A DNA stretch of 6,425 nucleotides from a virus (lineage: Duplodnaviria > Heunggongvirae > Uroviricota > Caudoviricetes), in IMG/VR virus record IMGVR_UViG_2703718859_000020. One strand, given 5' to 3'. Of this stretch, positions 1,858 to 6,425 are shown piece after piece. The notes under the pieces are model-generated. The model did no database searches, was not told the origin of the DNA, and worked only from the letters and a program-made list of their open reading frames with translations. Every line of letters starts with the position of its first letter. Positions within the stretch are counted from its first letter, which is position 1. Made by a program: the position numbers and the translations under genes.

Positions 1858-1973
1858 GAATAAACGCCATAATACTGAGGTATAACCATGATGAAATATA
1901 CGCCCGTACAGGGGCGGGGATTCGTTCGCCCTGGTGAATCTGAAAAGCCATGCTATAGGGTATTTTCAGGCAT

Positions 1974-2003
1974 AAAAAAAGCGGTCCCGATATGGAACCG
2001 CCT
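1974..2003 (-). terminator. Rho-independent terminator for the minus-strand cassette transcripts
   Basis: Stem GCGGTCCC (1981-1988) / GGAACCGC (1995-2002), 7 of 8 bp paired, loop GATATG. On the minus strand it is followed by a run of 7 U (plus-strand A-run 1974-1980). Located 66 nt downstream of the cassette B second gene. Confidence 0.55.
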
Positions 2004-2069
2004 TTCTGAACAATTAACCCGCTGCGCCGTATGTGTCAACAATCATAAGCCCGAACATGATAACCGTGA

Positions 2070-2273
2070 TCAGGCTGGTGGGCAATTACCTTGCTTGTTG
2101 GGGCCGTATTGTGCTGCCATTTTCATCCGTTCAGAACGTGAATATTTTTTTAGAAACTCATCAAGGACAAAAGCGCATGGAGCGAATCTTTCTGATTCAT
2201 GCTCGAGCGCCATATTTTCGTGCTCTCTGTTCGTTTTTTGCGATGGTGTATTGGTTGATTCTTTATTGGTCAT
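2070..2273 (-). CDS. Small protein of unrecognised family, 67 aa (cassette B, gene 2)
   Basis: ATG at 2271-2273, stop at 2070. Paralogous to the 2787-3014 ORF: shared MTN start and motif F-x-L-[DE]-[DE]-F-x-x-K-Y-x-R (FVLDEFLKKYSRS vs FALEDFVDKYPRR), with the same 57-nt spacing from the upstream RHH gene. Weak SD. Confidence 0.45.
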   Translation of the reverse strand: MTNKESTNTPSQKTNREHENMALEHESERFAPCAFVLDEFLKKYSRSERMKMAAQYGPNKQGNCPPA

Positions 2274-2330
2274 TGTGTGTACCTGTAAAGCAATGCGCCG
2301 TAGTACCTCACGCCACGGCGCTGATAGTAA

Positions 2331-2510
2331 TTATTCTGATTCTTTGGCCTTGCGGCGCTGGCGGCGTTTGATCTCGCCTTTTGCTGCCGTAACTAGAAAT
2401 CCGGCGGTACTTTCGCCAGGTTCTTTAAGTTGCTCAATATCGGTCATTACCTCATGCGGGATTCTGACCGTTGTCATTTGTGATTTTGCGTTCTTTGCAC
2501 CTGTTGCCAT
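2331..2510 (-). CDS. Ribbon-helix-helix (CopG/Arc/MetJ-like) DNA-binding protein, 59 aa (cassette B)
   Basis: ATG at 2508-2510 with SD AGGAG 8 nt upstream. Sequence MATGAKNAKSQMTTVRIPHEVMTDIEQLKEPGESTAGFLVTAAKGEIKRRQRRKAKESE shows the RHH pattern: N-terminal beta-strand (TTVRIPHEV), helix A, a G-E-S-T turn, helix B, and a basic tail. The six-frame track extends this ORF to 2735, but the internal ATG with the SD is the supported start. Confidence 0.7.
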   Translation of the reverse strand: MATGAKNAKSQMTTVRIPHEVMTDIEQLKEPGESTAGFLVTAAKGEIKRRQRRKAKESE

Positions 2511-2530
2511 TTCTGGTTCTCCTGATAATC

Positions 2531-2623
2531 GGTGTATTTCAGTATACGCAAAAAAAAAGATAAAAAAAGTCTTGCGGTGTATTTCACCTGAATGTAGATT
2601 TAAAAATGAAGGTGAAATACACC
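2531..2623 (-). promoter_or_regulatory. Cassette B promoter with three copies of operator motif GGTGTATTTCACC
   Basis: Minus-strand -10 TATACT (plus 2541-2546) about 31 nt upstream of the start codon; the -35 is poor (T-rich). Motif copies at 2531-2542, 2576-2588 and, inverted, 2611-2623; the last two form a perfect 13-bp inverted repeat with a 22-bp spacer. Confidence 0.5.
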
Positions 2624-2634
2624 CAAAACAACAA

Positions 2635-2678
2635 CGCCCCGCAGTGATGGGAACACATACGGGGCGTCTAACCAAACC
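2635..2678 (-). repeat. Conserved GC hairpin (CGCCCCG-N18-CGGGGCG) followed by TCTAACCAA, upstream of the cassette B promoter
   Basis: Read directly; a homologous element lies upstream of the cassette A promoter (3385-3427). On the minus strand the hairpin is followed by a T-rich tract (TTGTTGTTTT). Confidence 0.4.
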
Positions 2679-2747
2679 ATTAATTGAGGTAACGATTATG
2701 GCTATAAAAGAGCATAGCTTACTCTTTATACACACACAAACGCCCCG

Positions 2748-2767
2748 GAAACGGAATAATCCGTTTC
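2748..2767 (-). terminator. Weak hairpin after cassette A gene 2 (GAAACGGA-ATAA-TCCGTTTC)
   Basis: 8-bp stem with a 4-nt loop, 20 nt downstream of the stop at 2787. Only a weak T-rich tract follows on the minus strand. Confidence 0.3.
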
Positions 2768-2786
2768 ATAGTTCGGTTTTGTGCAC

Positions 2787-3014
2787 TCATCCTGGCGGTC
2801 GGTTTTTGCCGGATTTAAGCCGCCGTGGGTATTTATCGACAAAATCTTCAAGGGCAAATTTTTCTGGTGGCACTAAGCGCGGCGCTGGTGGTGGTATTTT
2901 TGTTCTGGTTAGTTCTTCCTCAACTCTGGCGCAGGCTTCTGACTGCCTTTGCCGGATGATTTCATCATCTTGCGTTTGCGTGTCTTGTATTGGTGATAGT
3001 GTGTTGTTGGTCAT
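2787..3014 (-). CDS. Small protein of unrecognised family, 75 aa (cassette A, gene 2)
   Basis: ATG at 3012-3014, 57 nt after the RHH stop; paralog of the 2070-2273 ORF (same motif and position). Weak SD (AGGG). Confidence 0.45.
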   Translation of the reverse strand: MTNNTLSPIQDTQTQDDEIIRQRQSEACARVEEELTRTKIPPPAPRLVPPEKFALEDFVDKYPRRLKSGKNRPPG

Positions 3015-3071
3015 GATACTGCCCTGTAAAGCAATGCGCCGTAGTACCTCACACCACGGCGCTGATAGTGA

Positions 3072-3251
3072 TTATTCTGATTCTTTGGCCTTGCGACGCT
3101 GGCGGTATTCAACTTCCCGCTTTAATGCAGCTGTAACAAACTGCCCTGTACTTTCGCCGGGCATTTTTACCGCCTCAACATTGTTCATAACTTCATGTGG
3201 AACCCTTGCCGCAACTGTTTGTGATTTTGCGTTTACTGCTTTTGTCGCCAT
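3072..3251 (-). CDS. Ribbon-helix-helix DNA-binding protein, 59 aa (cassette A)
   Basis: ATG at 3249-3251 with SD GAGGGG 8 nt upstream. MATKAVNAKSQTVAARVPHEVMNNVEAVKMPGESTGQFVTAALKREVEYRQRRKAKESE is 36/59 identical to the cassette B RHH protein and has the same length and RHH pattern. Confidence 0.7.
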   Translation of the reverse strand: MATKAVNAKSQTVAARVPHEVMNNVEAVKMPGESTGQFVTAALKREVEYRQRRKAKESE

Positions 3252-3280
3252 GTTGAGCACCCCTCATAAAAAACAAATGC

Positions 3281-3353
3281 AGTATGCAGGAAAAAAAACA
3301 AGTGTTCAACACTTGACGTGTTTAACACCTCGATTTAAATTGGTGTTCAACAC
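3281..3353 (-). promoter_or_regulatory. Cassette A sigma70-like promoter overlapped by three palindromic operators GTGTT-N-AACAC
   Basis: Minus-strand -35 TTGAAC (plus 3304-3309), 17-bp spacer, -10 CATACT (plus 3281-3286), about 30 nt upstream of the start codon. 11-bp palindromes at 3302-3312, 3318-3328 and 3343-3353; the first overlaps the -35. Confidence 0.5.
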
Positions 3354-3384
3354 CTTATTTAGGCAAGGTGTAGAAACGACGAAA

Positions 3385-3427
3385 CCCCGCACTGTAGGAG
3401 CAGTAACGGGGCTTCTAACCAACAACG
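3385..3427 (-). repeat. Conserved GC hairpin (CCCCG-N17-CGGGG) followed by TCTAACCAA, upstream of the cassette A promoter
   Basis: Homolog of the 2635-2678 element, in the same position relative to the promoter. Confidence 0.4.
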
Positions 3428-3634
3428 TAAACGAGGAGCCGTTATGGTTGCCGTAAATCATATACCACACCTTGTACACACACAAACGGCCTTTGTGTGG
3501 CGTTTTCTGGCACTGAGTGCCGGAGAATCTCAAATAATCCACGTAACCGCCTGGACGGAACGCGAAGCACGTAACCGTTGCCCGTCAGGTTGTGTTGCTG
3601 TATTCGCCGCCCGTATTCGCCAGGGGGTAGGCTT

Positions 3635-4318: not shown

Positions 4319-4618
4319 ATGAAAAAGAAAATTTCTGGCTTAACTGCTAGTGGCAACACTCACCCTAAATTTACGCGCGGCGATATTTACCGCGACCAGT
4401 ACGGCGGCACGGTAACGATTAAAGGTGTAGAAGAGCGACGCATTACCTACCGCCGTGAAGGCTACGAATATGACTGCGTGATGCCTGTTTATCAGTTCCG
4501 GCGTGATTTTTCTCTGGTACAGACCGCGCCGCATAACGTGCCCACCAGCAGGGAGAAAGCACGCGCCAATATTCAGAAGATGAAAAACATGATTAACGGA
4601 TTCAGGGGCAAGAAATGA
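4319..4618 (+). CDS. Hypothetical protein, 99 aa
   Basis: ORF whose stop overlaps the rep start (ATGA at 4615-4618), suggesting translational coupling. Weak SD. No family recognised. Confidence 0.45.
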   Translation: MKKKISGLTASGNTHPKFTRGDIYRDQYGGTVTIKGVEERRITYRREGYEYDCVMPVYQFRRDFSLVQTAPHNVPTSREKARANIQKMKNMINGFRGKK

Positions 4619-6012
4619 AAAGCGCACCGAACTTAAAAAAACAGCCTTACGACAAGATGACCGAAGTCATCATTTTTGCGGGTAGTGATGCGTGGGCACA
4701 TGCGAAACAGTGGCAGGAACAGGACGGGCGACTGGCTGGCGATAATGTGCCTCCCATTGTGCTGGCTGATGATCAACTGGATGAACTGGCAGACCTGAGA
4801 ATCATCGACGAGGGGCGCTATTGTGTCCGGCTGTACAAGGCAGGCCACATCAGGCCATCAAATATTAATGCCATTGCGCACAAGCTGGCGGCGGCGGGCG
4901 TAACTGATGCGAATTATTACCCCGAAGGGATACACAGCCAGAAGCGGGAGAACTGGCGCGAATATCTGGAACGGGAGCGGGGGAAAAAGCCAGGGGAAGA
5001 ACACCACCAGCGAAAAACCACGCTACCGATGAGCGTTGGATCTGCCGGATACGACACGCAATTAGATTACGTGGTAAAGGGGATTATTCCGGCATCGTCG
5101 CTTTGCAGCATATACGGGGCGAGCGGTTCCTATAAATCATTCCTTGCGGGTTCGTGGGCGTGTCACGTTTCCACGGGCCGCCAGTGGGGAGGCCGCAGGG
5201 TGGCGCATGGCGCTGTTCTCTATGTGGTTGGTGAAGGCGGTATCGGCGTTCCGCGTCGTGTAAAAGCCTGGGAGGTTGTGCACGGTGAGCAGGTGAAAAA
5301 TCTGTATCTGGTAAACCGTCCCATCTTTCCGGCGGTCCCGCTTGATGTTGATGAAATGGTTATCGCTGCCCGTCAGGTGGAGCGGGAAACGGGTAAACCT
5401 GTACGCATGATTATTCTGGATACGCTGGCGCGTTGCTTTGGTGGGAATGATGAAAATGATTCCCGTGATATGGGGGCGTTTATCCGTGGTTGTGACGAAC
5501 TGAAACGACGCACAGGGGCCACGGTGCTGGTGGTTCACCATTCCGGCAAGGATGAGACGAAAGGCGCGCGCGGTTCCAGTGCATTTCGTGCATCACTGGA
5601 TGCTGAATACCGGATACGCAGGGAGGACGCAGGAAGCGAAGCGCTGGTTATCTCATGCACCAAAATGAAGGACGCGGAGGAACTCAAAGAGGCTGCCTAT
5701 GATTTGCGGGTGGTGGAGCTTTTTACCGACGCTGACGGGGAGTTAATCACGTCGCTGGTGGTGGTGGATAAGCCGCGCCCTCCCGTTGAACTGGAGCGCA
5801 TCGAGGAGGCAGGGAACAAGACGGAAAACCATACCGCGCTATGGGGGTGCATCCGTTCACGCACACAGAACGGCGACAAGTGCACGATCCCGCTGTTACG
5901 TGATGACATGAAAAAACTGGGGTATGAAATGAAAAACTTCCGGCGCTGGCTGTACAAGCTGGAAAAAGATGGGGTTATTCGTATCGATGGGGATGATGTA
6001 GCGCCGCTATAA
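4615..6012 (+). CDS. Replication-associated RecA-fold P-loop ATPase (RepA / AAA_25-like helicase or initiator), 465 aa
   Basis: SD CAGGGG 6 nt upstream. Walker A-like SIYGASGSYKSF (residues ~165-176, deviant with Tyr where the second Gly is expected), Walker B VRMIILDTLAR (~263-273), and VLVVHHSGKD typical of RepA/DnaB-like proteins. N-terminal ~150-aa domain and a basic C-terminal ~70-aa region consistent with a DNA-binding winged helix. Confidence 0.8.
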   Translation: MKSAPNLKKQPYDKMTEVIIFAGSDAWAHAKQWQEQDGRLAGDNVPPIVLADDQLDELADLRIIDEGRYCVRLYKAGHIRPSNINAIAHKLAAAGVTDANYYPEGIHSQKRENWREYLERERGKKPGEEHHQRKTTLPMSVGSAGYDTQLDYVVKGIIPASSLCSIYGASGSYKSFLAGSWACHVSTGRQWGGRRVAHGAVLYVVGEGGIGVPRRVKAWEVVHGEQVKNLYLVNRPIFPAVPLDVDEMVIAARQVERETGKPVRMIILDTLARCFGGNDENDSRDMGAFIRGCDELKRRTGATVLVVHHSGKDETKGARGSSAFRASLDAEYRIRREDAGSEALVISCTKMKDAEELKEAAYDLRVVELFTDADGELITSLVVVDKPRPPVELERIEEAGNKTENHTALWGCIRSRTQNGDKCTIPLLRDDMKKLGYEMKNFRRWLYKLEKDGVIRIDGDDVAPL

Positions 6013-6203
6013 AAGTGAGGAGCAAAAGCGAGGGGGGTAGAAAGAGGGCCAAAATTAGCCTGCTCTCCCTCACTTTTCGACCTGTATACATCCTCAAAAG
6101 TGAGGGGTAAAAAAATACTTATGAAACACACACATAGAAAAACCAAAAATCCCAACTGCGACGAAGTGAGACGCTTGAAAAAGTGAGGCAAAAAAGTGAG
6201 AGG
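6011..6203. repeat. Iteron cluster: candidate replication origin immediately 3' of rep
   Basis: Copies of AAAGTGAGG or close variants at 6012-6020, 6025-6033 (AAAGCGAGG), 6097-6105, 6163-6171 (GAAGTGAGA), 6180-6188 and 6194-6202, plus an inverted copy CTCCCTCACTTTT at 6065-6077. The two sets flank an AT-rich segment (about 6106-6160). Confidence 0.6.
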
Positions 6204-6212
6204 TTGCGAGAA

Positions 6213-6425
6213 ATGACCCAAAAACGCAGAGACAGAACAGAGCCGAAATATAAGGCGTTAGATATGGCTGAACTGGCTTTAAAGGTGGCAATCAGAACGA
6301 TAGACCGCCACGCGGGGGAAGGATACGCGAAAGCACATCCCGAACTGATAAGCGCATTCATGACCACGACGGCGGCAAATTTTGCCACGCTGACAGAGCG
6401 GGAGATTGCCGAAGCGGAACAGGTA
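6213..6425 (+). CDS. Hypothetical protein, 5' part only (runs off the window end)
   Basis: ATG at 6213 with GAGAGG upstream; open frame for 71 codons to the window edge (MTQKRRDRTEPKYKALDMAELALKVAIRTIDRHAGEGYAKAHPELISAF...), with ordinary helical-protein composition. Not in the supplied track because it has no stop inside the window. Confidence 0.45.
   Translation, partial: MTQKRRDRTEPKYKALDMAELALKVAIRTIDRHAGEGYAKAHPELISAFMTTTAANFATLTEREIAEAEQV

Follow-up and report, generated by a model that had tools for sequence, protein, structure and literature searches.

The window analysed here is a 6,425-nucleotide stretch of DNA from a virus of the class Caudoviricetes (IMG/VR record IMGVR_UViG_2703718859_000020), and appears to belong to a phage-inducible chromosomal island (PICI) of Escherichia coli. 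At 4615-6012 on the plus strand it carries a gene, rep, for a 465-residue replication protein (Rep) whose start overlaps the stop of the preceding DUF4222 gene. Directly after rep comes a gap, 6010-6212, containing short repeats (iterons) and bounded on the right by a small conserved hypothetical gene of PHROG 1231 (6213-6425, plus strand), which stays open for 71 codons until it runs off the window. Since the first repeat overlaps the rep stop codon (6010-6012) and the ATG of the next gene lies at 6213, the repeats occupy the entire 200-base gap.

The preliminary description of this DNA had proposed six direct copies and one inverted copy of a AAAGTGAGG-type repeat, arranged as two sets around an AT-rich segment and beginning at the rep stop codon, and direct reading of the sequence bears this out: four copies lie to the left of an A-rich spacer at 6106-6162 and three to its right. 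In the left set, iteron 1 (6012-6020, plus strand) is an exact AAAGTGAGG that shares the last base of the TAA stop codon, iteron 2 (6025-6033, plus strand) has one mismatch (AAAGCGAGG), and iteron 3 (6068-6076) lies on the minus strand, reads CCTCACTTT on the plus strand, and forms the left arm of a divergent pair whose right arm is iteron 4 (6097-6105, plus strand, exact). The right set, all on the plus strand, consists of iteron 5 (6163-6171, GAAGTGAGA) with two mismatches but an exact AAGTGAG core, iteron 6 (6180-6188, exact) and iteron 7 (6193-6201, AAAGTGAGA) with one mismatch. Possible degenerate copies are found at 6041-6048 (AAAGAGGG) and 6204-6212 (TTGCGAGAA). The extent first given to the array, 6011-6203, was right as to its place and slightly too small, as the array spans the whole of 6010-6212. 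The spacer, a candidate DNA-unwinding region to which no strand is assigned, is 67% A+T and 53% A, rising to 76% and 60% in its core (6106-6150). Midway in the divergent pair lies TGTATACA (6083-6090, likewise without strand), a candidate point of first melting or assembly. A perfect 11-bp inverted repeat joins 6067-6077 and 6096-6106; as single-stranded DNA the inverted pair could form an 11-bp hairpin (z = -3.7), with no run of T after it.

A comparison with shuffled sequence, suggested at the outset as a check, came out in favor of the array. The heptamer AAGTGAG occurs seven times in the 6,425-base window against 0.53 expected, a count reached in none of 200 shuffles, and six of the seven fall in the repeat region. 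With up to one mismatch allowed, AAAGTGAGG has six matches in the window, all within 6012-6201, and none in the remaining 6.2 kb. In a complete related island with its flanks (L001, 30.6 kb), all seven AAGTGAG copies lie in the same single gap. A second repeat cluster, of the type of the crr of satellite P4, was considered and rejected, as none is present in that complete island.

A scan of one genome per species returned 80 loci encoding homologues of Rep at 50-73% identity, in Citrobacter, Xenorhabdus, Kosakonia, Pantoea, Pectobacterium, Serratia, Morganella, Dickeya and other genera; further E. coli and Klebsiella loci were added. Homologues of Rep in all number roughly 2300. Nearly all of the roughly 90 homologues, from across the Enterobacterales, have repeats directly after the stop codon, laid out to the same plan: two or three direct copies (about +1, +12 and +21) are followed by an inverted one near +55 and a direct one near +85, and after a gap of some 55 nt come three or four further direct copies, from about +143 to +190. 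In the window, the array agrees with this plan copy for copy. The most conserved feature of the region, not singled out in the preliminary description, is the divergent pair with its strict spacing. The 5-nt cores of the pair are exactly 24 nt apart in 67 of 74 loci, and 26 nt apart in the E. coli clade that includes the window; a TATA stands at the center of the pair in 70 of the 74, independent of iteron type.

Rep has an N-terminal domain (residues ~1-125), a RecA-fold helicase core (~146-314) and a C-terminal winged helix (~400-465). The core is recognized by Pfam AAA_25 (E=1.9e-43), the only Pfam domain in the protein, and its AAA_25 residues are invariant among 23 aligned homologues. Against PDB sequences there is a single, weak match, to the hexameric helicase RepA of plasmid RSF1010 (1g8y, E=0.004). 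Full-length Rep corresponds to PHROG 2850, whose function is unknown, and the helicase core also matches phage primase-helicase PHROGs. The winged helix (residues 400-465, coded at 5812-6009 on the plus strand) is a predicted structure, with helices at 404-418 and 425-434, a recognition helix at 442-451, and a beta-hairpin wing at 455-464. In a full-length AlphaFold (AF2) model built from 24 homologues, residues 400-465 have predicted local distance difference test (pLDDT) scores of 85-94 against a mean of 65 overall, and the domain modeled by itself scores 86. Every Foldseek match of the domain model in the PDB is either a winged-helix DNA binder or an MCM C-terminal winged helix (probability 0.9-0.99, TM-score 0.6-0.7), and the matches include IdeR and DtxR on DNA, PcaR, HrcA, LexA and MexR. 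The same search with the full-length model yields RecA/RadA-type matches to the core, spurious matches to periplasmic binding proteins, and nothing informative for the N-terminal domain. As modeled, Rep is a helicase with a C-terminal winged helix, which is the domain plan of the Rep proteins of Staphylococcus aureus pathogenicity islands (SaPIs) carried on another class of ATPase.

The sequence of the repeats varies by lineage, with a core of GTGAGG in the window and in Xenorhabdus, GTGCGG in Citrobacter, Kosakonia and Phytobacter, and GTGGGG in many others. Alignment of the Rep C-termini allows residue 441 (window numbering) to be compared with the fourth base of this core, and in the 81 loci with clear repeats the two are concordant in every case: asparagine goes with A (27 loci), histidine (11) or lysine (33) with G, and serine (8) or glycine (2) with C. 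Column 441 is the sole error-free predictor of the repeat base among 340 aligned Rep columns. In the window it is Asn441 (codon AAC, 5935-5937, plus strand), a candidate specificity residue that directly precedes, and would cap, the third helix of the confidently predicted winged helix, the recognition helix. In a tree built from the helicase core only, the serine/C and histidine/G types are interleaved and one asparagine/A locus is nested among histidine/G loci; parsimony on this tree gives about eight independent switches of the repeat base. Within E. coli, the last 70 residues of Rep, winged helix included, are identical between locus L082 and loci L098 and L099 except for His441 in the former and Asn441 in the latter, and nearly all repeat copies read AAAGTGGGGA (GTGGGG) in L082 and AAAGTGAGGA (GTGAGG) in L098/L099, while the sequence between the repeats remains homologous. 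Asparagine with adenine, and lysine or histidine with guanine, are chemically sensible protein-DNA pairings. Because column 441 is unique in this respect, two different residues prefer G, and the pairings make chemical sense, the Rep winged helix would appear to read the repeats. The co-variation with a predicted recognition-helix residue supports, strongly though indirectly, the binding of these repeats by Rep, and it suggests that one amino acid of Rep may decide which repeat sequence is recognized.

Published origins of PICIs and SaPIs were given in the preliminary description as lying directly 3' of rep, with iteron sets around an AT-rich region and with Rep binding the iterons, and the literature agrees (PMC6092414, PMC9371898). 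According to Fillol-Salom et al. 2018 (PMC6092414), an E. coli PICI origin always has an AT-rich region flanked by two sets of iterons. SaPI Reps bind iterons of 5-6 nt directly after rep through their C-terminal winged helix, melt the origin DNA and are self-loading (Qiao et al. 2022, PMC9371898). The same arrangement is found here: the array stands immediately 3' of the initiator gene, in the window as in the ~90 homologous loci, and it comprises two sets of short iterons around an AT-rich region together with an oppositely oriented pair. Since this layout matches published SaPI and Gram-negative PICI origins, the origin in the window belongs to a known kind. It is very probable that replication of a phage-inducible chromosomal island originates in the gap 6010-6212, on which the adjacent Rep would act. 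By analogy, its best reading would be as an origin that depends on Rep and is independent of the host initiator. The same is hinted at by a circular Klebsiella record of 16,971 bp, a capsid-forming PICI whose Rep is of this type and whose iterons match.

For this origin we infer a course of events that runs through Rep binding, melting, self-loading and origin firing. Induction of the island would lead to production of Rep, whose winged helix would bind the AAAGTGAGG repeats, with Asn441 reading the A of GTGAGG. Rep bound to the divergent pair (6068-6076 and 6097-6105) would assemble around the central TGTATACA, with a contribution from Rep on the flanking direct arrays. The helicase core would form rings, open the TATA element and/or the A-rich spacer (melting may start at either), and load itself as the replicative helicase without DnaA; host primase and polymerase and the island's own single-stranded DNA-binding protein (SSB) would then copy the excised circle. 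A broader proposition, to which we give somewhat better than even chances, is that residue 441 sets replicon specificity across a large family of PICI and capsid-forming PICI replicons in enterobacteria (asparagine reading A, histidine or lysine G, and serine or glycine C), that natural switches between asparagine and histidine, with a concerted change of all of the roughly nine repeats, create new origin-specificity groups, and that these Reps constitute a fourth class of self-loading initiator-helicase, RecA-fold and resembling superfamily 4 (SF4), beside the SF3 and MCM-like Reps of SaPIs.

Several points weigh against this picture. Codon 441 is only ~75 bp from the first repeat, so the covariation is inflated by physical linkage; the uniqueness of column 441 and the pairing of both histidine and lysine with G suggest that more than linkage is involved. 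One N441-type E. coli origin (L095, 2917-3180) mixes two GTGGGG copies with GTGAG ones, and one of the two is the inverted arm of its divergent pair. This origin is the sole partial exception to the correspondence of residue and base, and from its sequence it looks like a recombinant of N-type and H-type origins. The main repeats are mostly co-oriented on either side of the A-rich spacer, whereas the description of SaPI origins stresses opposite orientations. Apart from the two terminal domains and parts of the helicase core, the full-length AF2 model is of low quality. Rep has no recognizable primase domain, and priming is therefore unexplained. For this Rep family and this sequence, finally, origin function is assigned by comparison and analogy.

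The covariation speaks only to recognition of the repeats by Rep, not to where replication starts, and this leaves a small chance that the repeats are Rep-binding sites with a mainly regulatory role, throttling read-through into the ssb-perC-morphogenesis genes or titrating Rep ("handcuffing" copy control). Plasmid iterons serve both initiation and control, and the gap does lie inside a one-directional operon, with neither a promoter-like site nor a terminator-like site beyond chance. An operator, however, would need neither the A-rich spacer nor the strict spacing of the divergent pair around TATA, both of them origin-like features; the equivalent slot is a functional origin in EcCICFT073 and in SaPIs, and the complete island offers no second repeat cluster as an alternative origin. 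The repeats always adjoin rep, even in distant genera, and their sequence follows a Rep residue rather than the packaging genes; both facts tell against a packaging or partition signal used by another island protein (a cosB/pac-like site for TerS, or a centromere-like site), which we regard as very unlikely. TerS-binding and parS-like sites, too, typically take the form of short direct repeats in an array, and related islands do encode their own TerS and TerL, but the rep-repeat module is 98-100% identical in islands with quite different packaging, namely capsid-forming PICIs and the classical PICI of O157:H7. A site of this kind is unlikely because the module is common to islands with different packaging genes and tracks Rep. 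Equally hard to credit is a decayed or chance feature without present function in a defective remnant: decay does occur, in four relatives that have lost most of the array (L022, L069, L078 and L079), and the integrity of this island lies outside the view of a window ending at 6425, but as judged from sequence the array in the window cannot be put down to chance or decay, given the shuffles (0/200), the copy-for-copy fit to the full family plan, the full-length open frame of rep with the invariant AAA_25 core residues already described, and the 100% identity of the gap to that of a complete capsid-forming PICI.

The preferred reading, a Rep-dependent origin, agrees with what a search for other signals in the gap returned. 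No DnaA box (within 1 mismatch), IHF site or GATC is present in the gap, and dependence on DnaA or IHF was rejected for want of matching sites there. A promoter scan of the gap found no sigma-70-like site, and a terminator scan found one terminator-like site, on the minus strand, not above chance expectation; interpretation of the gap as a terminator or promoter was rejected on these results. Rfam has no match anywhere in the window.

EcCICFT073 provides the nearest functional precedent in Gram-negative hosts for a gap of this sort. There, a temperature-sensitive plasmid was kept when it carried rep together with the gap, and deletion of either lowered maintenance (PMC6092414). EcCICFT073 shares with the window and its relatives the backbone of int, alpA, YlcI/YnfO-like, icd-like and DUF4222 genes, a replication protein, a gap, a small ORF, ssb and perC, and its origin lies in the same gap after the replication gene, with short iterons in both orientations. 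Its replication protein differs: Pri (584 aa) is a P4-family primase/SF3-type protein (TIGR01613), unrelated to Rep of the window beyond the N-terminal 125 residues, and its iterons read GGTAGAYA as against AAAGTGAGG. Of the two origins, that of EcCICFT073 is the one with experimental support. The supplements of the same paper list O157 islands and give no iteron sequences (PMC6092414).

With SaPI1, SaPIbov1 and SaPI5 the window shares an initiator and helicase in one protein, a C-terminal winged helix that recognizes iterons (predicted, in the window), and 6-12 iterons directly downstream of rep with an AT-rich center and at least one pair in opposite orientation; a separate loader is not known. 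The ATPase of the SaPI Reps is SF3 or MCM-like SF6, whereas Rep of the window has a RecA-fold AAA_25 core resembling RSF1010 RepA and DnaB; the RecA-fold core would therefore imply a translocation polarity opposite to that of SaPI Reps. There is no sequence similarity between the two, the hosts of the window family are Gram-negative, and its repeats are mostly co-oriented.

The alpha protein of satellite P4 likewise joins helicase and origin binding in one polypeptide, with a C-terminal DNA-binding domain acting on short repeats. P4 and the island of the window are both phage satellites of E. coli (P4 is mentioned in PMC6092414), but alpha includes a primase domain and its helicase belongs to SF3, and P4 requires the distant second cluster crr, which L001 lacks. 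The iteron plasmids pPS10, RK2, F and R6K resemble the window in placing repeated initiator sites beside an AT-rich unwinding region; their iterons, however, are ~17-22 bp against 9 nt here, and their dedicated WH1-WH2 initiators recruit DnaA and DnaB. A classical iteron-plasmid origin (RepA/TrfA/pi type) was considered and set aside, given the 9-nt repeats, AAA_25 as the only Pfam domain and the lack of a DnaA box within 1 mismatch. RSF1010 divides the tasks between two proteins, the iteron binder RepC and the helicase RepA, whereas Rep of the window fuses helicase and winged helix.

The layout of the origin is already known, being textbook for SaPIs and described for E. coli PICIs in 2018. 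The main upshot for the window is that the island appears to carry an intact replicon, with rep a full-length open frame and the repeat array intact. What is added is a Rep-origin module of an uncharacterized initiator family, which joins a RecA-fold helicase to a C-terminal winged helix and occurs across the Enterobacterales in classical and capsid-forming PICIs alike, together with a proposed one-residue/one-base rule that would predict which origin each Rep can fire. The literature searched contained no paper on this Rep family, its origin plan or such a rule. Under the rule, one point mutant would be enough for a direct test of origin specificity. The rule would also bear on cross-talk, incompatibility and the co-residence of several satellites in one cell, and may help in building orthogonal Rep-origin pairs.

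The rest of the window fits the left arm of an E. coli PICI or capsid-forming PICI, an assignment supported by the sequence of int, alpA, the DUF4222 gene and the 465-residue Rep. A tyrosine integrase gene, int, occupies the left end (1-1230), followed by the gene for the AlpA regulator (1605-1793), small minus-strand YlcI/YnfO-like genes, and the DUF4222 gene (4319-4618), whose stop overlaps the rep start by four bases. An integrase at the left end, AlpA, a one-directional rightward gene order and a replication module are all seen, and a size of ~10-18 kb without lysis or tail genes was judged on complete relatives, as the window stops at 6425 and the right part lies outside view. Complete relatives of ~15 kb have genes for capsid, portal, HNH, terS and terL, and none for tail or lysis. 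Identity of the window to E. coli chromosomes is 90-96%, and the closest whole-window matches are islands of the order int-alpA-...-DUF4222-RepA-ssb-perC. Two related records run on into capsid, protease, portal, HNH, terS and terL, the capsid-forming PICI layout (as described in bioRxiv 10.1101/2022.09.08.507074). To the right of the origin gap, the gene that bounds it has a homologue at 18428-18679 of L001, and in related islands ssb and perC come next. In strain 10 the island lies in tqsA and continues through ssb, perC, major capsid, prohead protease, portal, head closure, connector, HNH, terS and terL. Strain STEC2017-197 has an island of the same type, a complete capsid-forming PICI, at the roxA/phoQ site, with a gap 100% identical to that of the window. 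In O157:H7 the rep-gap module is 98% identical and sits in a classical PICI of ~10 kb, also at the roxA/phoQ site. Its presence in both settings makes the rep-repeat module common to the two types of PICI. Induction by helper phage and transfer have been demonstrated for EcCIEDL933 and EcCICFT073 (PMC6092414; bioRxiv 10.1101/2022.09.08.507074).

Two public records hold whole islands as circles. CP018459.1 (L097), the 16,971-bp circular Klebsiella record, is filed as a plasmid and is a whole capsid-forming PICI; its Rep is S-type, its repeats are GTGCGGC, and no other replication gene appears in PLSDB's gene table, itself incomplete. NZ_CP148328.1, a 10,790-bp circular "plasmid" record, is a whole E. 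coli island with an EcCICFT073-type primase domain. Such records suggest excised circular PICI forms abundant enough to assemble as separate replicons.

Some relatives depart from the common origin plan. At L022, L069, L078 and L079 most of the array is missing from the ~200 nt after the rep stop, and two or three repeats remain beside an intact rep. The middle of the origin was apparently lost by recombination between the first and last iterons, and from their sequences these loci are likely replication-dead remnants. Many origins of the family, at L027, L028, L032, L033, L036, L072, L092 and L094, have a motif like GAAAScCGCnyCATTACTGG in the spacer that separates the iteron sets. The motif is present as well in the origin of EcCICFT073 (L091 29180-29215), despite the different Rep and iterons there, and the spacer of the window keeps at most TGAAAC of it. 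The motif could be a shared site for a host factor or for priming.

The N-terminus of Rep also varies. Residues 1-125 in the window (4615-4989) are 63% identical to the N-terminus of Pri of EcCICFT073 (L091 27242-27616), so that one N-terminal domain is shared by two different helicase classes, both of which follow a DUF4222 gene with a stop/start overlap; it may serve to dock a partner common to both. At loci of Xenorhabdus, Serratia, Pectobacterium and others (L003-L026 among them), the Rep ORF is ~690-730 aa and has some 250 residues at its N-terminus that the E. coli form lacks, with helicase, winged helix and origin plan unchanged. The extra ~250 residues may be a fused primase-type domain.

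In the left part of the window, the gap between int and alpA (1231-1604) is markedly AT-rich (31-37% G+C against ~50% elsewhere), and is presumably a regulatory region for induction of the island. Farther right, a tandem duplication of ~740 bp (2263-2387 and 3004-3128, at a unit spacing of 741 bp) holds a minus-strand cassette of two genes in two diverged copies (ORFs at 2070-2273, 2331-2510, 2787-3014 and 3072-3260), encoding a YlcI/YnfO-family protein, 61% identical between copies, and a small hypothetical protein. A 522-aa ORF that runs across these cassettes on the plus strand (1888-3456) looks spurious, its translation being of low complexity and without a family match.

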